Assembly: GCA_038850285.1 (NCBI GenBank)
Contig: JAWCMA010000006.1
Coordinates: 36,917-54,133 of the forward strand
DNA: 17,217 nt
Origin: Methanocellales archaeon
Lineage (GTDB): Archaea; Halobacteriota; JAWCLZ01
Direction of reading: 5' to 3'
The notes beneath the pieces are model-generated. The model was given only the letters and a program-made list of their open reading frames with translations, was not told the origin of the DNA and made no database searches. Each line of letters opens with the position of its first letter. Position 1 is the first letter of the stretch. The translations under genes and the position numbers were made by a program. Of this stretch, positions 5,803 through 16,244 are shown in pieces.

Positions 5803-6770
5803 GGGATTCCAAGCAGCTTTCTCGCATTTTTTCCAAAGATCTTTTCTTTCGCCTCGAGCGATATATCAAGTGCAGCAAGCCATCTCACGTAGTTCCTCAA
5901 GCCTGTATGGCGGTCGCAGAAGTTAGTTATAGCAGGATAGTCGCTTCCGAAGAGTATTCTCTCAGCACCCAGTCTTGCTATCGCCTTTTGAATCAAATCC
6001 TCAATGAATACAGCTGAGGTATCCAAATATATATTATCACTTGCACTCATTAGCTCTATTGCTTCATCCAAGTATTTCCCGGGGAGATATGGTGTATATC
6101 CACCTAGATGAGCGAGGATCAATTTTAAATCTGGAAATTCTTCAGCTATTCTTCTTAAGTGTTTAGGCCTTGCATATGCTGCAAGAGATGGCAGTTCAAA
6201 TGGACCAAAATTGCAGCCCATATGCATCAATATAGCAAGATCGTTTCTTTCAGCGAATTCATAGATAAAATCGAGTTTTCTATCACTTGGATTGAAAAAC
6301 TGAAGCGTTGGCAGTAGTTTAATTCCTTTAAATCCAGATTTCTTGATTTTCATTAGTTTTTCAAATACATATCCCTCTTCCACATTGGGATTTACGGATC
6401 CAAATCCAAGAAATTTAGCGGGATAGCGATCCATGAAAAGCTTTACTTCTTCCTCAGATGTTTTAACCACCTCTAAAATCTGCTTCCCTAAATCACGAAG
6501 ATATGCTTCGGCATAAGGGCTTTTAACTGGGATTTCACGCCAGAAATACCAGAAATACTTTCTAGCTTCCTCTACCTTGAGCTCTTTTAAATATACAAGG
6601 TCCTCAACGTTAGTATCTATTGCTAGCAACACTGCCATATCCACGCCTGCTCTGCTCAATGTATCAGCTAGCTGATCAATAACTTCTTCAGGAGTTTTAC
6701 TAGGTACTCTAGGCGGGTGCAAGTGAATATCTATTATTTCAACTTCTCTTTCCGCAATTTTTAGAGTCAT
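5781..6770 (-). CDS. Amidohydrolase_2 family metal-dependent hydrolase (TIM barrel)
   Basis: IDIHLH metal motif, GFKGIKL, ILMHMG, FPDLKLILAHLG, NIYLDTS, RILFGSDYP, KIFGKNARKLL. Start set at ATG 6770. Confidence 0.9.
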   Translation of the reverse strand: MTLKIAEREVEIIDIHLHPPRVPSKTPEEVIDQLADTLSRAGVDMAVLLAIDTNVEDLVYLKELKVEEARKYFWYFWREIPVKSPYAEAYLRDLGKQILEVVKTSEEEVKLFMDRYPAKFLGFGSVNPNVEEGYVFEKLMKIKKSGFKGIKLLPTLQFFNPSDRKLDFIYEFAERNDLAILMHMGCNFGPFELPSLAAYARPKHLRRIAEEFPDLKLILAHLGGYTPYLPGKYLDEAIELMSASDNIYLDTSAVFIEDLIQKAIARLGAERILFGSDYPAITNFCDRHTGLRNYVRWLAALDISLEAKEKIFGKNARKLLGIPNNKIIK

Positions 6771-6795
6771 CAACCAAATTTTTACCTTTGAGTTA

Positions 6796-6808
6796 ATATA
6801 AACTTCCC
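6796..6808 (-). promoter_or_regulatory. Probable archaeal BRE/TATA promoter of the amidohydrolase (leaderless or short leader)
   Basis: Minus strand reads GGGAAG-TTTATAT, ending about 26 nt upstream of ATG 6770. Confidence 0.5.
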
Positions 6809-6945
6809 CGATAACTATCCCAGCGATAGAGTAGAATAAATACAATACAGGAATACAGATACTAGATACTAGAATACTAGCAAAAGCTATATATGCAATT
6901 AATGTAATTCTTGCTCTAAGATAATAAGGATGGAGGAAGGAGGGT

Positions 6946-6968
6946 AGGCGCCTCATAATGAGGCGCCT
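6946..6968. repeat. Perfect GC-rich inverted repeat AGGCGCCTCAT-A-ATGAGGCGCCT (terminator or operator candidate)
   Basis: 11-bp arms with a 1-nt spacer, 3 nt beyond the stop of the minus-strand ORF ending at 6972. Confidence 0.8.
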
Positions 6969-6971
6969 TTT

Positions 6972-7166
6972 CTACTCAAGAAATTTCTCAAGCTTTTTCC
7001 TTCTATCATCAAAAATAGCAATGATCCTTGCCTCTCCCTTTACGACTTCTTCAAAACCTCGAGTTTCACTTTTAATTCGCAGCAGCGTAGAGAGCAAGCC
7101 TTTATGAAGCTCTAGGCTTTTCATTATTCTCTCATGCTCCTCTTTTAATTCTTCAACTCTGCACAT
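6972..7166 (-). CDS. Small hypothetical helical protein (about 64 aa)
   Basis: E/K/L-rich amphipathic sequence (MCRVEELKEEHERIMKSLELHKGLL...). SD-like GGGGTGG before ATG 7166, TATA-like ATATATAAA near 7206-7214, and an inverted repeat right after the stop. Confidence 0.6.
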   Translation of the reverse strand: MCRVEELKEEHERIMKSLELHKGLLSTLLRIKSETRGFEEVVKGEARIIAIFDDRRKKLEKFLE

Positions 7167-7199
7167 CCAGTCCACCCCAGATCGATTTTCTCTTTCTTT

Positions 7200-7265
7200 T
7201 ACATTTTTATATATTTTTTCCTGCCACTATTTTTGCTCTTTCCCAATACTGCTTTATATTTAAAA
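7200..7265. promoter_or_regulatory. Divergent promoter region for the small ORF and hisI
   Basis: Plus-strand TTTATATT at 7253-7260, about 20-27 nt before the hisI ATG. Minus-strand GGAAAAAATATATAAAAA around 7204-7221. Confidence 0.5.
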
Positions 7266-7279
7266 GGCTAGTAAAAAAT

Positions 7280-7654
7280 ATGAATGAAGTACTGCAGGAG
7301 GTAAATTTCAAGGATGAATTGATCACCGCGGTTGTACAGGATTTCAAAACCAATGAAGTACTAATGTGTGCCTTTATGAATAGGGAAGCCCTTGAGAAAA
7401 GCCTCTCAACAGGTAAAATGTGCTTCTACAGCAGAAGCCGCCGAAGACTATGGGTTAAGGGCGAGACCTCTGGTCATTATCAATATATTAAAGAGGTGAG
7501 AATTGATTGCGATGGCGATTCTCTTTTATTCAAGGTGGAGCAAATCAAAGCTGCTTGCCATGAAGGCTATCGCTCTTGTTACTTTCGCAAACTCGAGAAT
7601 GGGAAATGGAAAGTGGTTGAGCCAAAAATAATTCAAAAAGAGCACGATCAATAA
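7280..7654 (+). CDS. hisI: Phosphoribosyl-AMP cyclohydrolase
   Basis: VLMCAFMNREAL, YSRSRRRLWVKGETSGH, DCDGDSLL, ACHEGYRSCYFR signature motifs. Confidence 0.97.
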   Translation: MNEVLQEVNFKDELITAVVQDFKTNEVLMCAFMNREALEKSLSTGKMCFYSRSRRRLWVKGETSGHYQYIKEVRIDCDGDSLLFKVEQIKAACHEGYRSCYFRKLENGKWKVVEPKIIQKEHDQ

Positions 7655-7691
7655 TTAACTTTACTTTCTCTGCGCTCTAATTGATCTATTT

Positions 7692-7781: not shown

Positions 7782-7817
7782 TTAGTGACTTCTTCAATGG
7801 AGGAGGAAAATAGATTT

Positions 7818-10202
7818 ATGGCACCAAAGATTGAGGCAAAAAAGGAAATGAAATACGAAGTTGAGGGAATGCAAAACGTGGAGATAAAAATAGGCAAAAT
7901 CGAGGAGGAGGAAAAACCCTGGGAGCCAATGGGACCAACGCCAAAGCCAAGCGTTCTTGATCTGCGGAGTTGGGATCACCTTTTGCTTAAGAGATACAAG
8001 CCATTTTATGCACCCCACCAAGATTTCTGCAATCTATGCACAATGGGACCATGCGATTTAACTGGAAATAAAGAAGGCGCATGCGGATTAGATTTACAAA
8101 CCCAGAAATCTAGGATAGTGCTTGCCGCAGTTGGCATAGGCACCGCTTGTCATACTGGTCACGCTAGGCATATGGTGAACTACCTCTGCGAAACCTTTGG
8201 CGAAGATACGCCTATAAGCTTAGGTGTAAACGTAAATGTTGAAGCCCCACTTACGAGGCTAATTACAGGTATAAAGCCGAGAACCATTGGTGATCTTAAA
8301 GAGGTACTGGAATACATTGAAGAGGAATATGCAATAGTAATGGCAGCTCTTCATACAGGCCAAGAGGGTAGCTACTTAGACTTTGAATCCAAGTCACTGC
8401 ACCTTGGAATGCTTGATTTACTTGCACTTGAAGTTGCAGATATAGCTCAAATTTCAGCATTGAACTTCCCCAAGGCAGATCCCAATGCGCCTTTAATAAC
8501 CTATGGATATGGTAATATAGATACCTCGAAACCGGTGATCTTAGTAATCGGCCACAACGTGATACCAAGCACAGGTATAATAGATTATCTAGAGGCAAAT
8601 AATTTAATGGATAAAGTGGAACTCGCAGGAATATGCTGCACTGCTCACGATAACGCTAGATATAACAAAAAAGTTAAATACGCTGGATCACTCGCGCAGC
8701 AGCTTAGATTAATTAGAAGTGCGATTCCTGATGTCATCGTAACAGATGAGCAATGCGTGCGCACAGATGTATTTAAAGAGGCAAGCAAATTGGGAATAAA
8801 AGTTATAGCTGCCTCAGAAAAAATCTGCTATGGATTACCTAATAGAACTAAGGATAAACCCGAGGATATAATAAGAGATCTAATGGCAGGAGCACCTGGG
8901 TATCTAATCACCGATCCCAAAGTAGTAGGCCCAGTTGCAGTGAATGTAGCGATTGAGAATGCAAAGGTCAGGAAAACAAAGAATCAATTGATGAGCGATG
9001 AAGAATTCAAGAAATGGGTAACAGAGTGCACAAACTGCGGTAGCTGTACATTGGTATGCACCCATGGTTTGAGAATTGGCCCAGCGAATAAAGCAGCTGA
9101 GAAAGGAGATAACTCCAAGTTAATTGAACTATTAACTACTTGCATCTCTTGCGGTAAATGTGAATGGGAATGCCCCAAGAACATTCCCATCGTAGATGTC
9201 ATGATAAAAGCAGGCATAAACGAGCTCAGGAATGAAAAGGGATTTGTGAGAGCAGGTAGAGGTGCTATTGAAGATTCAGAGATACGCAAAGTTGGCTCGC
9301 CAATTGTATTAGGCACAATTCCAGGTATAATTGCATTCGTAGGCTGCCCAAATTACCCAGATAGCGCAGAGGCAGTATATAAGATGGCTGAGGAATTCTT
9401 GAATAGAAAATATATCGTGGTAGTCTCAGGATGCCATGCCATAGATATTGGAAGATATAAGAATGAGGAGGGCAAAACGCTTTATGAGAGATTCCCAGGC
9501 ACCTTTGATGCAGGTGGACTAGCAAATGTAGGCAGCTGCGTTTCAAACTCTCACATCGCAGGAGCTGCAATTAAAGTACCTAATATTTTTGCGATGCGGC
9601 CAATAAGGGCTAATTACGAGGAAATCGCGGATTACATTTTAAATAGAATAGGTGCGGTAGGCGTTTCTTGGGGAGCAATGTCTCAAAAGGCAGCTTCAAT
9701 TGCAACTGGCTTCAATCGGCTTGGGGTGCCAGTAGTAGTTGGCCCGCAGGGAGCTAAGTATAGAAGAAGCTACTTGGGAAGAAAGGATATAGCCGAGGAT
9801 TGGTGGGTCTATGACATCAAGGATAGCTCGAAAGTCCCAATCGAACCCGGTCCCGAGCACTTGCTATACATTGCTGAAACTTGGCAAGAAGCAATTGTGA
9901 AGATCGCTAGATTATGCATGAGACCTAATGACACCGATCGAGGAAGATCAATAAAACTATCGAATTACCTAGACTTGAGTGAGAAATACTATGGCAAGCT
10001 ACCGGATGACTTCCATCTCTTCGTGCGCTGTCCAACAGATCTACCAGTTGCTAGGAGAAAAGAATTACTTAGAGTGCTTGAGGAGAAATATGGCTGGAAG
10101 ATCGACCACGAGAAGATGAAGATCCTCGAAGGACCAATTAGAAAATTCGACGCCAGATTCAATCCAACTAACCTTGAGCGCTTGCTCAAGAAGAAAGCAT
10201 AG
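7818..10202 (+). CDS. cdhA: ACDS complex alpha subunit (Ni-CO dehydrogenase)
   Basis: MGPTPKP, B-cluster Cys (C-x2-C-x4-C-x9-C), C-cluster ligands GHN, GICCT, DEQC, GCPN, SGC, GSCVSN, SQKA lysine, and two ferredoxin-type motifs (CTNCGSCTLVC, CISCGKCEWECP). Start set at ATG 7818 after SD GGAGGAGG. Confidence 0.97.
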   Translation: MAPKIEAKKEMKYEVEGMQNVEIKIGKIEEEEKPWEPMGPTPKPSVLDLRSWDHLLLKRYKPFYAPHQDFCNLCTMGPCDLTGNKEGACGLDLQTQKSRIVLAAVGIGTACHTGHARHMVNYLCETFGEDTPISLGVNVNVEAPLTRLITGIKPRTIGDLKEVLEYIEEEYAIVMAALHTGQEGSYLDFESKSLHLGMLDLLALEVADIAQISALNFPKADPNAPLITYGYGNIDTSKPVILVIGHNVIPSTGIIDYLEANNLMDKVELAGICCTAHDNARYNKKVKYAGSLAQQLRLIRSAIPDVIVTDEQCVRTDVFKEASKLGIKVIAASEKICYGLPNRTKDKPEDIIRDLMAGAPGYLITDPKVVGPVAVNVAIENAKVRKTKNQLMSDEEFKKWVTECTNCGSCTLVCTHGLRIGPANKAAEKGDNSKLIELLTTCISCGKCEWECPKNIPIVDVMIKAGINELRNEKGFVRAGRGAIEDSEIRKVGSPIVLGTIPGIIAFVGCPNYPDSAEAVYKMAEEFLNRKYIVVVSGCHAIDIGRYKNEEGKTLYERFPGTFDAGGLANVGSCVSNSHIAGAAIKVPNIFAMRPIRANYEEIADYILNRIGAVGVSWGAMSQKAASIATGFNRLGVPVVVGPQGAKYRRSYLGRKDIAEDWWVYDIKDSSKVPIEPGPEHLLYIAETWQEAIVKIARLCMRPNDTDRGRSIKLSNYLDLSEKYYGKLPDDFHLFVRCPTDLPVARRKELLRVLEEKYGWKIDHEKMKILEGPIRKFDARFNPTNLERLLKKKA

Positions 10203-10214
10203 GAGGAGAGGTAA

Positions 10215-10727
10215 ATGGCGAAAGCTTGGAATTTAGCGGATGTAGCGGGACCGAAGCAAGCTAGAGTAACTAAGCCTGAGATTATAGCAGCCCTTGTGAA
10301 GAAAGCCAAGAAACCACTACTAGTAGTGGGCGCAGAAATACTGCGAGATGGAGTAATAGATAGAGTGATTGAGATAGGTAAAAAGGGCATACCAATAGCA
10401 GCCACAGCCCATACCATAAAAGCATTTTTAGAAAAAGGCTATACCCCAGCTTCAAGCGACTTAGGAGTGCACGAGGTAACCAACTTATTAAAAGATCCTG
10501 AGTGGAAGGGCTTCGATGGAAAAGGCAACTACGACATGGTAATATTCCTAGGAATAAACTACTACTTAGCATCGAGAATGCTATCCACACTCAAACACTT
10601 CGCCCCCCATTTAAGAGCTTACTCCCTTGATCGCTACTACCACGTAAATGCAGAGATGAGCCTAGATAACATCTTCGAAGACCAAAAATTCCTAGAAGCC
10701 CTCGATTTATTCATAAGCAAACTATGA
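10215..10727 (+). CDS. cdhB: ACDS complex epsilon subunit
   Basis: AGPKQA, KKAKKPLLVVG, LKDPEWKGFDGKGNYD, LSTLKHFAP, LDRYYHVNA. SD GGAGAGAGGT upstream. Position after cdhA. Confidence 0.95.
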   Translation: MAKAWNLADVAGPKQARVTKPEIIAALVKKAKKPLLVVGAEILRDGVIDRVIEIGKKGIPIAATAHTIKAFLEKGYTPASSDLGVHEVTNLLKDPEWKGFDGKGNYDMVIFLGINYYLASRMLSTLKHFAPHLRAYSLDRYYHVNAEMSLDNIFEDQKFLEALDLFISKL

Positions 10728-10781: not shown

Positions 10782-12197
10782 ATGGCTGAGGAAAAAGAAG
10801 TATTCCCATTTGACATAAGCCCGATGTATGAAGGGGAGCGGATTCGAAAAGGCGAGATGTTCGTTGACTTAGCAGGACCGGAGTACAAGGGATTTGAACT
10901 AGTAGTATCGGCACCTATGGAGGAAGTTGAGGATGGCAAAGTAACCATCATTGGTCCAGATATTAAGGACATGAAAGAAGGCAGTGGTTACTCCTTTGCA
11001 ATGATCTATAAAGTGGCTGGAGAAATGGTAGAAAAGGACTTAGAAGGCATTATTGAAAGAAGAAACCATGACTTCCAGAACTATATACAGGGATTTATGC
11101 ATTTGAATTCAAGAGATGTAATTTGGTGCAGAATTAGTAAGGATGCCGTGAAAAAAGGCTTGAAATCCCTGGAGCAAATTGCCAAGGCAACAATGATGCT
11201 CTTTAAAAGTGAGATGCCCTTCATTCAAAAAATGGAGGCAACATATATAACTGATAAAGCTGAGATTGAGAAGCGAAGGCCAATGGCACAAGCAGCTTGG
11301 GACTGGAGAGATGCTAGAGCTAGAGGTTTAAATGAAGAGGATGTGGATACCTTCTATGGCTGCACCCTCTGTCAAAGCTTCGCACCAACTAATGTCTGCG
11401 TAGTCACCCCAAATCGCTATTCCCTCTGTGGAGCAATAGGTTGGTTCGATGGAAGAGCAGCTGCAAAGGTAGATCCAGAGGGCCCAAATGCACCAATTCC
11501 AAAGGGAGAGGTAATAGATCCAATCCTTGGGCAATATAGTGGAGTAAATGAAGCTGCAGTTAGATTAAGCGGTGGAGAATATAATAAGATAAATCTCCAT
11601 AGCTTCTTCGAGAGTCCGCATACTTCATGCGGCTGCTTCGAAGTCTGCGGTTTCTACATACCAGAGGTTGATGGAATAGGTTGGGTGGATAGGGATTATA
11701 CAGGTATAGCGGTGAATGGCTTGCCCTTCTCCACAATGGCAGGGCAAACAGGGGGAGGCAAGCAAATCATAGGCTTTCTAGGCGTAGGCATAGAATACAT
11801 GCGCTCCAAGAGATTCATCCAAGCAGATGGAGGTTGGTATAGAACTGTTTGGGTGACCAAGAGATTGAAGGAGAAAACCCAGGATTTCTGGCCACCTGAG
11901 ATGAAGGGGAAAATAGCTACCGATGAAGATGTAAAGAACTTAGAGGAACTTAAGGCATTTCTCAAGAAGGTAAACCACCCAGTGGTAACAGGGGTAATAA
12001 GACCAGTGGATGGCAAGAGAATAACCGAGGGCTGGCCATTTGAAGTAACCCCCGAGATAAAGCAAAAAGTAATTGCCTATATAGAGGAAACCGGGGGAGA
12101 AATAGATCTCGCGGTGGTGGAGAAAAAACTAGGCTTAACTGAAGCGCAATTCATGAAAGTAGTAGAAGTACTTCAAGCTGAGGGAATACTAGGGTGA
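10782..12197 (+). CDS. cdhC: ACDS complex beta subunit (acetyl-CoA synthase)
   Basis: FDISPMYEGERIRK, A-cluster ligands GCTLCQSFAPTNVC, SLCGAI and HTSCGCFE, plus GQTGGGKQ and QADGGW. Confidence 0.97.
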   Translation: MAEEKEVFPFDISPMYEGERIRKGEMFVDLAGPEYKGFELVVSAPMEEVEDGKVTIIGPDIKDMKEGSGYSFAMIYKVAGEMVEKDLEGIIERRNHDFQNYIQGFMHLNSRDVIWCRISKDAVKKGLKSLEQIAKATMMLFKSEMPFIQKMEATYITDKAEIEKRRPMAQAAWDWRDARARGLNEEDVDTFYGCTLCQSFAPTNVCVVTPNRYSLCGAIGWFDGRAAAKVDPEGPNAPIPKGEVIDPILGQYSGVNEAAVRLSGGEYNKINLHSFFESPHTSCGCFEVCGFYIPEVDGIGWVDRDYTGIAVNGLPFSTMAGQTGGGKQIIGFLGVGIEYMRSKRFIQADGGWYRTVWVTKRLKEKTQDFWPPEMKGKIATDEDVKNLEELKAFLKKVNHPVVTGVIRPVDGKRITEGWPFEVTPEIKQKVIAYIEETGGEIDLAVVEKKLGLTEAQFMKVVEVLQAEGILG

Positions 12198-12218
12198 AAA
12201 ATAAGATGAGGTGGAAAA

Positions 12219-12443
12219 ATGGCGGAGGAGAAAAAAGTATTAAAACTAACACTTAAGAAACCAGAAGCAGCACCAGCAGCACCAACCCCAGCGCCAGCAC
12301 CAACACCAGCAGTTAGACCAACTGTGGCAGCACCTGCACCAGCTGTAGCAGCGCCAGCGGCTGGAGGAGTGATAAAGTTAATTCTACAGAATGCTAAGAT
12401 ACACATCGACCAAGTAATAATCAAGAGGGAAGAGAAGAAGTGA
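12219..12443 (+). CDS. orf74: Ala/Pro-rich micro-protein resembling the detached C-terminal tail of CdhC
   Basis: Own SD GAGGTG (12208-12213) and ATG. Stop overlaps the cooC start (GTGA). Ends GGVIKLILQNAKIHIDQVIIKREEKK, like the terminal motif of typical archaeal CdhC. Confidence 0.85.
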   Translation: MAEEKKVLKLTLKKPEAAPAAPTPAPAPTPAVRPTVAAPAPAVAAPAAGGVIKLILQNAKIHIDQVIIKREEKK

Positions 12444-13195
12444 CTAGGATAATTGCCGTCACAGGTAAAGGTGGAACTGGGAAAACCGCGGTTTCCGCGC
12501 TATTGCTGAGATACTTGATTAAAAAAAATAATGCAAGAATCTTAGCAGTAGACGCGGACGCGGATTCCAATTTACCTGAAGCCCTTGGCGCTAATAATGG
12601 TAAAACAATCGGGGATGTGAAGGAAGTATTTTTAAGAGGGAGGCTAGATCTCCCGCCTGGAGTTGATAAAAGAGTTAGATTTGAGGGAATGGTCCACGAA
12701 GTCCTGAGGGAGAATGAGAAGTATGACTTAATAGTCATGGGCAGACCAGAGGGACCAAATTGCTATTGCTATACAAATGATATGCTGAGAGCAATATTAG
12801 ATAAAATCGTGAATAACTATAATTACGTGGTTATAGATACAGCTGCTGGACTTGAACATTTCAGCCGAAGGTTGATTCAACACATCGATATTCTCATAGT
12901 GGTAACCGATACCTCCAAGCACGGCTTGACCACAGCTCAGCGAATTAAAAAAATAGCCGAGGAAGTTAACATCAGGATTAATAAAATGTTTATCTTGGCT
13001 AATAAAGTGGATGAAGGCCAAGCAATAACTATAGCGCAATATGCAAAGCATTTGAGTCTGGAGGTAATAGGTGCTATTCCCTTTGATGAAGTGCTATTGA
13101 AATACGACCACCAAGGATTGCCTCTCTTGAATCTCCCCGATGATTCCATTGCGGCTAAAAAGGTTGAGGCAATAGCTAGAAAGATTGGGCTGTGA
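12440..13195 (+). CDS. cooC: CooC/AcsF-type nickel-insertion ATPase (MinD/ParA family)
   Basis: Deviant Walker A GKGGTGKT, VDADADSNL, MGRPEGPNCYC (CxC nickel site), DTAAGLEHFSR, ANKV. Located within the cdh operon. Confidence 0.93.
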   Translation: MTRIIAVTGKGGTGKTAVSALLLRYLIKKNNARILAVDADADSNLPEALGANNGKTIGDVKEVFLRGRLDLPPGVDKRVRFEGMVHEVLRENEKYDLIVMGRPEGPNCYCYTNDMLRAILDKIVNNYNYVVIDTAAGLEHFSRRLIQHIDILIVVTDTSKHGLTTAQRIKKIAEEVNIRINKMFILANKVDEGQAITIAQYAKHLSLEVIGAIPFDEVLLKYDHQGLPLLNLPDDSIAAKKVEAIARKIGL

Positions 13196-13199
13196 TCCT

Positions 13200-13415
13200 A
13201 TGACTAAAGTAACCGCTGAGGAAATTTTGAAAATCATTAGCGAACTGGAAATAGAGGAATTAAAAGGCATTGAAATGGAGGGAGACATAGAATTAGAACT
13301 CGAGTCCGAAGTTCTCATTCGGCAGATGGCTCCTCAAGTTCCTGAGACATTTGGAATGGAACTTTCAAGTGCTATGCAGCATTTATCAAATGCATTGAAA
13401 ATGATAGGCAAGTGA
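13200..13415 (+). CDS. orf71: micro-protein paralogous to the CdhD N-terminal region
   Basis: ATG 13200 lies 4 nt after the cooC stop. 24 of the first 36 residues are identical to the CdhD N-terminus (manual alignment). Confidence 0.85.
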   Translation: MTKVTAEEILKIISELEIEELKGIEMEGDIELELESEVLIRQMAPQVPETFGMELSSAMQHLSNALKMIGK

Positions 13416-13479: not shown

Positions 13480-14829
13480 ATGGCAAAGATAAATGTAGCT
13501 GAGCTAATGAAAATCATGAGCGAGCTAGAGGTTGAAGAACTCAAAGGAGTGGATATAGAAGGAGATATTGAACTTGAACTTGAGAGCTCGGTGGTAACAC
13601 TTATGGCAGGGCTCTCGCCAGAGGCATTGCAAGCTCTTGGAAGCGAGCTAACGGAAGCTATGGCTCGGCTGCAAGCAGCTGCAAAAGCACTTGGCATACC
13701 AATTCCTCCACTCGCACCTCCAATTGCTCCACCAGTAGCTCCACCAGTAGCTGCACCCCCAGTAGCCCCCCCAATCGCACCCCCGAAACCGATTGAGCTG
13801 ATTAAAACCAAGTTCAGTGTTAAGCCTGAGAAGTATCCAATGCAAATTCAAGAAGTGGTATTAGGAGCAACTTCAAGCGATGGAGGCACCAGAAGTCATA
13901 CCATAAAACTTGGCGGGCAAAAGGCAATGCCCTATTGTATCTTCGACGATGCAATTCCCAATAGACCTCATGTAACGCTTGATGTATTTGATATGCCAAT
14001 GAGCCTTGCCAAGGCAGTTAGAGTTCACTACGAAGATGTAATGCAGAATCCTGCTGAATGGGCGAAGAAAGCTGTGGAGAAATTCAATGCAGACATGGTA
14101 ACTATACACCTCGTAAGCACTGATCCACTCATTAAAGACACCCCTGCTAAGGAAGCCTGCAAAGTAGTGGAAGAAGTACTGCAAGCAGTGAAAGTGCCAA
14201 TTGTAATAGGAGGCTCGGGCAATCCCAAGAAAGACCCAGAGGTACTTGAAAAAGCAGCTGAAGTTGCTGAGGGCGAGCGCTGCTTGCTTGCAAGTGCCAA
14301 TCTAAATATGGATTTCCCGAGAATCGCGGCTGCAGCTAAAAAATATGGGCACGTGATACTAGCTTGGACGCAGATGGATATAAATGCTCAAAAGGAGCTC
14401 AATCGAAAGCTTTTGAAAACATGCGGCATACCCCGCGAGGATATAATAATGGATCCCACGACCGCTGCGCTGGGATATGGACTGGATTATGCCTATACAA
14501 ACATGGAAAGAATGAGAATAGCTGGGTTAAAAGGCGATGCCGAGCTAGCATTTCCAATGTCATCAGGCACAACTAATGCTTGGGGCGCAAGAGAAGCTTG
14601 GATGACTTCCTCGCCTCTTGCCCAAGACTCAGACTGGGGACCGAGGGAATATAGAGGCCCAATTTGGGAGATAACCACGGGCATGACCCTTGCCCTAGCA
14701 GGTGTAGATCTATTTATGATGATGCATCCCGCAGCAGTGGCAGCGCTTAAAGAACTCACTCAATCTCTACTTGGGAAAATTGATGCAACTCAAGTTGATA
14801 TCAGCGACTGGGTGAGCAAGGAGGTTTAA
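13480..14829 (+). CDS. cdhD: ACDS complex delta subunit (small subunit of the corrinoid Fe-S protein)
   Basis: [83 protein letters not shown]. Acidic N-terminus and Pro-rich linker. Confidence 0.97.
13699..13786 (+). repeat. Coding repeat for the Pro-rich linker (APP[IV])n in CdhD
   Basis: Encodes [29 protein letters not shown] and includes an exact tandem GCTCCACCAGTA x2. Confidence 0.8.
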
Positions 14830-14831
14830 AG

Positions 14832-16244
14832 ATGAAGGTAAAAAGTCCGCTTGAGGTCTATCGCTATTTACCAGCCACAAACTGCACTAAATGCGGCCAG
14901 CCCACTTGCATGGCTTTCGCGTCTCAGATGATAGCTAGAGAGAGACCCCTTGAAGATTGCACTCCAATTCTCGAGGCAAAGTATAAAGCCAAATATGAAG
15001 AACTAAAGCGATTGCTAGCGCCGGAGATCAAGCAAATAACAATTGGCGTTGGAGAAACAGCGAAGAAGATCGGAGGGGAAGACGTACTCTATCGCCACGT
15101 CTTAACCTTCTTCAATCCACCGCCGCTTGCATACGATGTCTGGGATACAATGGATGAAAAAGCACTGGAGGAAAGAGTTAAGAAAATAATTTCCTTCCAG
15201 AAATTCTACGTGGGTGAATTCCTGAAGCCAGATATGATCGCTGTGAGATCCACTTCGAATAATCCAGAGAAATTCGCAGCTTGCGTTAAAAAAGTCATGG
15301 GCATGACAAACTTGCCTCTTATATTGATGTCCCTAAACCCAGCTGTGCTTGAAGCTGGACTTAAGCTAGCTGGTGACAAGCGTCCATTGGTCTACGCGGC
15401 TAATAAAGACAACTGGAGGAAAGTCGCGGAACTAGCCAAAAAATACCGCGTACCCGTAACAGTTTCAGCTCCCGGTGATTTAGATATGCTTGCTTCCCTC
15501 GCGAAAACCCTCTTAGGCTTGAATATCGAGGACATAGTGCTCGATCCAGGTACCTATTGCCATGGAAAGCAGTTGAAACAAACCTTTGAGAACTTCATAA
15601 AACTTAGAAGGGTAGGAATAGTTGAGGGACAGCGGGATATAGCATTTCCAATAATGTGCATCCCAATGACAGCTTGGCTTACTGAGAAAAACCCTCTTGA
15701 AGGAGCATATAGAGAAACAGAGATTGCAAATATATTCACCGTGAAATATGCAGATTTACATGTGCTGCATAGCCTAGAGCCATATTCAATAATTCCCATA
15801 TTATATCTCAGGAGAAATATCTACACAGATCCCAGAACACCTGTGCAGGTAACACCTGGTTTGAAAGAAACAGGTACGCCAACTAGAAAATCGCCTGTTT
15901 TCGTGACCACCAACTTTGCTTTAACCTTCTACACTGTTGAGAGCGATATTTCCTCGAATAAGATAGATAGCTATATAGTGGTCGTAGATACAGGCGGCTT
16001 AGGCGTGGAACCTTCAGTTGCAGGGGGGCAGTTGACAGCGAGTAAAATAAAAGAAGCAGTGGAATTCGCCAAAGTCAAGGAAAAAATAGATCACAACACC
16101 CTGGTGATCCCAGGTTTAGCCGCTCGATTAAAGGGCGATTTAGAGGATGCCACTGGAATGACAATATTAGTAGGCCCAACTGACTCAGGTAGAATACCAA
16201 GTTGGATGGAAACCCACTGGAAGAAAATAATGGGAGGAACCTAG
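14832..16244 (+). CDS. cdhE: ACDS complex gamma subunit (large subunit of the corrinoid Fe-S protein)
   Basis: LPATNCTKCGQPTCMAFA...C [4Fe-4S] motif, IGGEDVLYRH, IVLDPGT, NIYTDPR, TTNFALTFYTVESD, IPGLAARL, VGPTDS. Confidence 0.97.
   Translation: MKVKSPLEVYRYLPATNCTKCGQPTCMAFASQMIARERPLEDCTPILEAKYKAKYEELKRLLAPEIKQITIGVGETAKKIGGEDVLYRHVLTFFNPPPLAYDVWDTMDEKALEERVKKIISFQKFYVGEFLKPDMIAVRSTSNNPEKFAACVKKVMGMTNLPLILMSLNPAVLEAGLKLAGDKRPLVYAANKDNWRKVAELAKKYRVPVTVSAPGDLDMLASLAKTLLGLNIEDIVLDPGTYCHGKQLKQTFENFIKLRRVGIVEGQRDIAFPIMCIPMTAWLTEKNPLEGAYRETEIANIFTVKYADLHVLHSLEPYSIIPILYLRRNIYTDPRTPVQVTPGLKETGTPTRKSPVFVTTNFALTFYTVESDISSNKIDSYIVVVDTGGLGVEPSVAGGQLTASKIKEAVEFAKVKEKIDHNTLVIPGLAARLKGDLEDATGMTILVGPTDSGRIPSWMETHWKKIMGGT

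Follow-up and report, generated by a model that had tools for sequence, protein, structure and literature searches.

The stretch of DNA analysed here, referred to throughout as the window, comprises 17,217 nucleotides of a Methanocellales archaeon (GenBank assembly GCA_038850285.1, contig JAWCMA010000006.1, positions 36,917 to 54,133 of the forward strand) and carries the genes of the complex called acetyl-CoA decarbonylase/synthase (ACDS). Directly downstream of cdhC, the gene for the acetyl-CoA synthase (ACS) β subunit, lies a 74-codon open reading frame (ORF), orf74, which is almost certainly a real, conserved gene for a CdhC tail split off as a protein of its own. Pfam assignments of the neighbouring genes place orf74 in a cdhABC-(cooC)-DE cluster with the following features.

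7785–10202, forward strand: cdhA (Pfam).
10215–10727, forward strand: cdhB (Pfam), with its TGA at the natural end of the conserved domain.
10782–12197, forward strand: cdhC, the ACS β subunit of ACDS, 471 residues (Pfam PF03598 and PF19436).
12039–12194, forward strand: extra C-terminal three-helix, winged-helix-like domain of CdhC, approximately residues 420–471 (AlphaFold2 and weak family matches).
12195–12209, forward strand: two in-frame TGA stops (12195–12197 and 12207–12209) between cdhC and orf74.
12208–12214, forward strand: Shine-Dalgarno-like GAGGTGG, 4 nucleotides 5' of the orf74 ATG.
12219–12443, forward strand: orf74, free-standing CdhC-tail protein of 74 residues (ATG at 12219, TGA at 12441–12443).
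12231–12260, forward strand: Lys/Leu amphipathic strand of orf74, KKVLKLTLKK, residues 5–14 (K5–K14).
12261–12362, forward strand: Ala/Pro/Thr/Val-rich linker of orf74, residues 15–48 (P15–A48), 34 residues.
12363–12440, forward strand: conserved tail motif of orf74, GGVIKLILQNAKIHIDQVIIKREEKK, residues 49–74 (G49–K74).
12440–13195, forward strand: cooC-type nickel-insertion ATPase (Pfam CbiA, ParA and NifH-type P-loop domains).
13200–13415, forward strand: small ORF of 71 residues, paralogue of the CdhD N-terminus.
13480–14829, forward strand: cdhD, with the catalytic core from residue 125 (Pfam PF03599 over residues 125–375).
14832–16244, forward strand: cdhE (Pfam).

The orf74 product has a dumbbell layout in which the basic strand is joined by the 34-residue linker to the tail motif. 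The gene is in frame with cdhC, from which the TGA codons at 12195 and 12207 separate it, has its own Shine-Dalgarno (SD) sequence, and is coupled to cooC, whose GTG start (12440–12442) overlaps the orf74 stop as GTGA. All of these features had been pointed out in an initial annotation and can be read directly in the DNA. A scan of the window for promoters and terminators returned sites no more numerous than expected from shuffles. The starts of cdhC (10782–10808) and orf74 (12219–12245) both encode MAEEK, and their first 27 nucleotides are identical at 21 of 27 positions; this resemblance may be a coincidence of Lys/Glu codon use or stem from copying of the start region.

The initial annotation had also stated that archaeal CdhC typically ends in a motif like that of orf74. 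The motif proved real, and the orf74 C-terminus is homologous to CdhC C-termini in sequence, family-model and profile comparisons. In a PDB sequence search, orf74 residues 17–73 aligned to residues 418–470 of the 472-residue M. thermophila CdhC (9c0s_E, E 0.0047), a chain that matches the CdhC of the window over residues 7–407 (E 5e-181). Two NCBIfam models are divided between the genes in the same manner: orf74 matches NF003379 at positions 424–462 of 464 (E 1.6e-4) and TIGR00316 at positions 431–460 of 460, whereas the CdhC of the window spans positions 3–405 and 3–418, respectively, and no further. As the two proteins match different stretches of NF003379 and TIGR00316, they are complementary parts of one family model. 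Alignment of the small-protein family described below (A2) with the CdhC family (A3) by hhalign gave a probability of 97.1% and an E of 5.5e-11 on the columns of the C-terminal tail. Judged by these comparisons, the homology between the orf74 and CdhC tails far exceeds chance. No Pfam family matched orf74. Its AlphaFold2 model reached predicted local distance difference test (pLDDT) values of 83–86 over residues 50–70 and below 50 in the linker, whose length and sequence differ among relatives in the alignments; DSSP assigned no secondary structure to this model, and the N-terminal strand was not packed on the tail.

The CdhC of the window consists of the A2 and A3 domains and has neither an Ala/Pro linker nor the tail motif. 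It is as long as a fused CdhC (471 residues) owing to a domain that follows A3, for which AlphaFold2 places helices at residues 424–437, 443–450 and 454–467 (pLDDT 75–80 in this region). The net charge over this helical domain is −5, and the protein stops four residues past helix 3. In the MAFFT alignment A3, the start of the domain, GGEIDLAVVEKKLGL, was set under the fused-tail consensus GGxIKLxLKNAKIxI; the likeness seems superficial. Pfam returned weak matches to DUF7343, NirDL-like helix-turn-helix (HTH) and MarR_2 models, all far under their cut-offs, and the NCBIfam CdvB model matched the domain, searched alone, at positions 213–256 of 260 (E 0.0026). The top Foldseek matches were winged-helix and HTH domains, with 2xvc_A in second place (probability 0.95, TM 0.67 by target, E 0.64) behind a Z-alpha winged helix. 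2XVC is the "broken" winged helix of CdvB (Samson et al. 2011, as cited in PMC12909875), which, according to passages of PMC12909875, is completed by the E3B motif of CdvA. The helical domain appears, weakly, closest to this CdvB fold, and we use the resemblance as a working analogy rather than as a statement of family membership.

Homologues of orf74 form an unnamed family of small proteins. A search of 1.84 billion representative proteins with orf74 yielded 6 matches at E ≤ 0.001, all 48–73 residues long. A profile built from 9 members, which scores orf74 at 105 bits, retrieved 112 proteins at E ≤ 10 (108 at E ≤ 1e-3), comprising 6 fragments of fused CdhC and 106 free-standing proteins of 48–93 residues. 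Some of these carry NCBI labels as hypothetical proteins of Methanothrix sp., Altiarchaeota or "Halobacteria archaeon", and the Joint Genome Institute (JGI) label often reads "CO dehydrogenase/acetyl-CoA synthase beta subunit"; as the JGI names indicate, automated pipelines have partly recognised the similarity to CdhC. In the ESM Atlas, orf74 came nearest to two archaeal clusters named "hypothetical protein", one with 94 members (score 0.88) and one with 74 (score 0.87); as both scores lie below 0.9, we treat them as leads only.

Most members are 55–93 residues long, and orf74 shares their three-part layout. The subgroup to which it belongs (with P0001, P0008 and P0009) starts with MAEEKK and has Q-N in the tail where most members have K-[ND]; in other subgroups the N-terminal strand occurs two or three times, or the tail diverges (MTIELRGASIHVAEVVIK type). 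The MAEEK N-terminus recurs in the small ORFs of the two closest genome records, L001 and L002, and not in the Methanothrix-type small proteins (MQLKLKKK). Repeated strands of the PLKLKLKKK type, in two or three copies, were seen in P0003, P0132–P0135, P0141, P0143, P0144, P0149 and P0151, and would permit more than one docking contact per tail. Two tail subtypes, GGIKLILKDAKISIDKVVLAK and GGMTIELRGASIHVAEVVIKPKK, also occur among the small proteins, Methanothrix-labelled ones included. For one member of each subtype (P0163 and P0219) the longest contig on record has the same length, 113,224, a hint that a single genome may hold two paralogues.

The tail occurs far more often as part of CdhC itself. 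We examined the 120 best-listed of the 7272 CdhC homologues with E ≤ 1e-30 (among 8000 scored candidates); 103 of these match the small-protein profile at their C-terminus, and a divergent tail recognised by motif in P0093 and P0124 brings the fused tails to 105 of the 120. Across 75 genome loci, the profile search found a fused tail in 48, all Bathyarchaeia and Asgard records, a tail in a short ORF in three (L029, L059 and L067, through a frameshift or a contig start) and a free-standing ORF in L001 and L002. The remaining 22 had no tail: seven are cut by a contig end, 14 are of the tail-less bacterial type, and L026 is unclear. The idea that relatives lack the tail was dropped once the profile search showed these 48 fused tails. 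In two of the Bathyarchaeia, L029 (7163–7390) and L067 (6918–7385), a fused-type tail lies off the cdhC frame and has no start motif of its own; these shifts are probably assembly errors, unlike the organised split in the window.

The state of the tail coincides with two further features. Fifteen of the 120 best CdhC homologues, one of them named Methanosaeta sp., have the helical domain; none of the 15 has the tail, and none of the tail-bearing CdhCs has the domain. The helical domains share 55–82% identity with that of the window and are clearly homologous; an E-x-Q-F-M motif where helix 3 begins is invariant among them. When the window is taken together with the 75 loci, only three sources show the domain (the window, L001 and L002), each time with a small ORF directly downstream. 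The free-standing proteins in turn carry the N-terminal Lys/Leu strand, in one to three copies, in 105 of 106 cases (99 by the strict motif and 6 as the variant MQLKLKPK); the sole protein without it, P0005, is a 48-residue prediction on a 911-nucleotide contig. The strand was found in none of 103 fused linkers, and fused tails enter the small-protein profile at position 16–49, not earlier. Tail loss, helical domain and N-terminal strand thus form an all-or-none association: where the covalent link is cut, both of the new ends carry a conserved new module. Two pairs of proteins share the length of their longest contig, which is consistent with one contig in each case: the helical-domain CdhC P0013 and the small protein P0004 (28,637), and the helical-domain CdhC P0012 and the small protein P0009 (24,932, L001).

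Nearest to the window among genome records are two metagenome-assembled genomes that bear the label Methanocellales archaeon and whose CdhC is 93% (L002) and 87% (L001) identical to that of the window. L001 has the same operon, and a 60-residue orthologue of orf74 follows after one TAA and a shorter, different spacer, with the SD sequence GAGGTGA; it is in frame with cdhC, and its GTGA overlap with cooC is kept. In L002 the small ORF starts with TTG behind GAGGTGG and a 47-nucleotide spacer with several stops, in a frame that differs from that of cdhC. In-frame placement is therefore found at only two of three loci and is not conserved. The L002 copy (5854–7668) is an orphan pair of cdhC and small ORF among unrelated genes, with no cdhA, cdhB, cdhD or cdhE nearby, an arrangement that fits a partnership of the small protein with CdhC. 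An unshifted version of its small ORF, whose linker is frameshifted in L002, exists in another assembly (P0001).

Codon changes relative to the window are mostly silent at both ends of the gene. The ratio of synonymous to non-synonymous changes is 6:2 (L001) and 5:1 (L002) over the N-terminal 16 codons, and 7:4 (L001) and 8:1 (L002) over the C-terminal 28 codons; in L002 the end modules differ from those of the window almost only synonymously. These counts point to purifying selection on both end modules. The split is thus no recent change in this one genome but a conserved, widespread architecture. That orf74 is no sequencing error, as the initial annotation had held, is borne out by the intervals downstream of cdhC in L001 and L002, each of which contains a free-standing small ORF, and by the 106 small proteins of the same form. 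The annotation had overlooked the CdhC helical domain, the strand specific to the free form, the wide spread of the family and the lack of a conserved frame.

A second gene in the window bears on the same system. The N-terminal 124 residues of CdhD contain an acidic amphipathic stretch, DIELELES, followed by a helix and a Pro-rich linker, and the product of 13200–13415 is a paralogue of the first ~75 residues, including the acidic stretch and the following helix. This free paralogue is conserved in L001 (8369–8584), and a profile of the CdhD N-terminal module, run on the loci, found it in the window and L001 only. The sections of PMC13370988 on CdhD describe an N-terminal scaffold and coiled-coil region, and the gene at 13200–13415 is probably part of the same tethering system. 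A PDB sequence search with the CdhD N-terminus returned nothing relevant, and an ESM Atlas search with the paralogue returned nothing usable. In all 37 fused-tail loci that hold cdhD, 90 residues or more precede the CdhD core, and an acidic alternating E-L-E stretch is usual in this extension; in all 13 tail-less bacterial-type loci the core begins no later than residue 74. The presence of the tail thus tracks the CdhD N-terminal extension, in agreement with a functional link.

Published work offers a role for the tail in its fused form. The CdhC extension of ~75 residues (398–472) was not resolved, and the account of it in PMC11474084 holds that it likely serves ACS movements between carbon monoxide dehydrogenase (CODH) and the corrinoid protein. 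In the parts of PMC13370988 that deal with complex assembly, the CdhD N-terminus forms an oligomeric scaffold; the disordered termini of CdhA, CdhC and CdhD are proposed to tether modules, with the CdhA and CdhC termini binding the scaffold, and a crosslink between CdhA E15 and CdhC K452 is reported. Given the co-occurrence of tail and CdhD extension and this tether role, we propose that orf74, which is the CdhC C-terminal extension encoded as a polypeptide of its own, is a non-covalent adaptor. CdhC in this clade has acquired a new acidic three-helix domain followed by a stop, a ribosome-binding site and a start codon, and the detached tail protein has one to three Lys/Leu strands at its new N-terminus. 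The strand would re-attach the tail protein to the helical domain of CdhC, as E3B of CdvA completes CdvB; the Ala/Pro linker would serve as a flexible arm that gives reach; and the C-terminal motif would, as in fused enzymes, bind the terminal regions of CdhD and CdhA in the complex core and so anchor ACS there, allowing ACS to swing between CODH and the corrinoid protein. We consider it probable that orf74 serves ACDS as a tether or adaptor. Docking of its N-terminal strand on the helical domain is a tentative suggestion, guided by the CdvA/CdvB analogy, and the adaptor scheme taken whole seems to us somewhat likely. A complex prediction of full-length CdhC (A3) with orf74 (A2) scored 0.11, the mark being 0.32, and speaks neither for nor against binding.

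Several observations weigh against this scheme. We infer the binding steps, the translation of orf74 and its incorporation into the complex from sequence. The N-terminal strand was modelled with low confidence (pLDDT 54–58), and the CdhC model has a mean pLDDT of 67. For the helical domain, the best Pfam match, DUF7343 (E 0.0044), scores 17.3 bits against a cut-off of 27.6, and the NCBIfam CdvB match scores 17.5 bits against a cut-off of 370; the top hit of a PDB profile search, 2xvc_A, has an E of 0.12, below significance, and Foldseek gave no match for the domain at E ≤ 0.001. The gene context of the three-part package is known from three loci (the window, L001 and L002), and at one of them, L002, the small ORF is frameshifted within the Thr-Pro repeat of its linker, which could be an assembly error or decay. 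The apparent link to Methanothrix comes from the source names of separate proteins. L026 is tail-negative yet has a CdhD extension, and is either an exception or a broken gene. Finally, when the CdhC cores that carry the helical domain are forced into one clade, an approximately unbiased (AU) test rejects the arrangement (p 0.0086), a result we return to below.

The main competing explanation, which we regard as unlikely, is that orf74 is a free cross-linker of the scaffold and is not attached to CdhC. Its basic strands would pair with the acidic DIELELES-type strands of the CdhD N-terminus and of the free paralogue, bridging scaffold modules, with ACS recruited through different contacts or truly detachable. 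The charges do complement each other, with VLKLTLKK and VIKLILQN on the basic side and the alternating acidic stretch of CdhD and of the 13200–13415 paralogue on the other. Both orf74 strands follow one hydrophobic/Lys residue pattern, the CdhD-N paralogue is conserved in L001, and the presence of the tail accompanies the CdhD N-terminal extension. This explanation leaves unaccounted for, however, why the strand occurs only with the CdhC helical domain (105/106 free proteins versus 0/103 fused linkers, and 15/15 tail-less CdhCs) and why cdhC and the small ORF have stayed together in L002, apart from cdhD. Moreover, organisms with fused tails carry the acidic CdhD stretch without any basic strand.

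Considerably less probable is a role in metal-cluster maturation instead of tethering, in which orf74 would act with CooC, for example by handing CdhC or CODH to the nickel-insertion ATPase. The GTGA translational coupling to cooC in the window and L001 is what such a partnership would lead one to expect, but the L002 pair has no cooC in the inspected downstream stretch, and the tail motif is the one carried by fused CdhCs whatever their operon layout, including Bathyarchaeial loci in which cdhC runs directly to cdhD. Searches of Pfam and NCBIfam found no similarity to maturation factors.

Read-through or recoding of the stops, giving a fused CdhC-tail protein with no independent orf74 product, is more improbable still. 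It draws on the in-frame position of orf74 in the window and of its homologue in L001, but it would require the ribosome to pass two TGA codons in the window and one TAA in L001, and the L002 ORF is out of frame beyond several stops and the 47-nucleotide spacer. In cdhB and cooC, TGA acts as terminator just where the Pfam domains naturally end, and no Rfam family, selenocysteine insertion sequence (SECIS) elements included, matched in the window. The small ORF has its own SD sequence and start codon at all three loci, and gene prediction gives over 100 homologues as small proteins in their own right, all opening at one conserved N-terminal motif. Hardly credible at all is an artefact or pseudogene, with cdhC broken by an error or a recent nonsense mutation and the tail piece a dead remnant: the L002 copy is frameshifted in its Thr-Pro repeat and the fused-type genes of L029 and L067 are broken by frameshifts of a kind that occurs in metagenome-assembled genomes, but the window has two stops, an SD sequence and an ATG, independent assemblies keep the arrangement with different junctions, both end modules are under purifying selection, and the N-terminal motif and the CdhC helical domain are novelties that no break creates.

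How the split arrangement arose is less straightforward than the fission put forward in the initial annotation. A split tail gene exists, and fission from a fused ancestor would be the simpler reading because most of the CdhCs examined, those of Bathyarchaeia and Asgard included, have fused tails. To this extent the proposal stands, whereas its mechanistic part, a free bivalent linker that could make ACS a detachable, exchangeable module, is a hypothesis; a single clean fission does not stand, given the AU test (p 0.0086). We computed a quick maximum-likelihood tree of 64 CdhC cores, trimmed of the C-terminal region, with 17 helical-domain and 47 fused rows. For the fused rows, one in three of the 105 fused proteins was taken and 12 loci were added; nine tail-less bacterial rows were lost at the ORF filter. 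The helical-domain CdhCs fall into five groups in this tree, and because the AU test rejects one clade we do not claim a single fission event. Two histories would fit: transfer of the 3' cassette between lineages, or its repeated loss by in-frame deletions, each of which would recreate a fused gene.

From the sequence data, the split tail can be regarded as a new and conserved architectural variant of a known enzyme complex. Literature searches and term look-ups in PMC11474084 and PMC13370988 found no split tail, helical domain or small protein in the text they covered, though the supplements and extended-data figures of PMC13370988 might show it; the text of that preprint contains none of the terms "Methanothrix", "Methanosaeta" and "split". 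The role of the CdhC extension is a live question: in 2024 it was invisible by cryo-electron microscopy, as described in the relevant passages of PMC11474084, and the 2026 preprint PMC13370988 proposes a tether, in the sections consulted without biochemical data. A tail that exists as a separate protein suggests that its function may be possible without a covalent bond to ACS, and the strand and helical domain form a natural pair of candidate docking modules, a direct handle on ACDS assembly. The architecture also predicts a small, unreported ACDS subunit in Methanothrix-type organisms. These organisms are major acetate-using methanogens. For annotation, the finding calls for caution: a cdhC of ~470 residues can have either of two architectures of nearly equal length, and the small ORF downstream of it is easily overlooked or called "hypothetical".

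A broader possibility, which we consider doubtful, is that ACDS in this clade, Methanothrix relatives included, owes its cohesion to free "glue" proteins instead of to extensions on the catalytic subunits. By completing a broken winged helix like that of CdvB, the detached tail would attach itself to ACS, the free CdhD-N copy (13200–13415) would join the core, and the supply of small proteins would set or exchange the number of ACS per complex. If true, this would be a regulated, modular form of a very ancient carbon-fixing machine.

Three known systems invite comparison. Ala/Pro-rich "swinging arm" linkers are familiar from biotin and lipoyl carrier proteins, namely the biotin carboxyl carrier protein (BCCP) and the E2 component of 2-oxo acid dehydrogenases, and in orf74, as in these, such a linker joins a small terminal module to what would be a multienzyme core. 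Unlike BCCP and E2, orf74 lacks a biotinyl or lipoyl domain and does not act as a carrier, and the weak matches of its linker to BCCP-type models (E 0.017–0.22) are driven by composition and are not evidence of homology.

The second is CdvB, whose system serves cell division and is unrelated to CdhC. Its C-terminal domain, like that of the CdhC studied here, is a small helix-turn-helix that ends just past helix 3, and it emerged as nearest by three weak but concordant routes (NCBIfam, PDB profile and Foldseek), the similarity remaining below significance in every search. As described in the portion of PMC12909875 concerned, CdvB and CdvA provide a precedent for a partner peptide that completes such a domain in trans, and docking of the orf74 strand on the CdhC domain may follow the same principle.

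The closest counterpart is the fused CdhC extension itself, exemplified by residues 398–472 of M. thermophila (PDB 9C0S/9C0T) and 401–470 of M. acetivorans. In contrast to this extension, orf74 is a separate polypeptide, set off by two TGA stops and its own SD sequence and ATG, and has an N-terminal Lys/Leu strand found in 0 of 103 fused tails; the CdhC paired with it ends in the three-helix domain, whereas fused CdhCs have an acidic stretch leading to the linker. In both, a flexible linker rich in Ala and Pro leads to the end motif G-G-[IV]-K-[LI]-x-[LF]-K-[ND]-A-K-I-x-I-[DG]-x-[IV]-[IV], after which comes a basic or an acidic terminus. Within the 2 MDa complex, orf74 and the fused tails presumably have a common role, the tethering of ACS proposed in PMC11474084 and PMC13370988, and they have a common operon setting.

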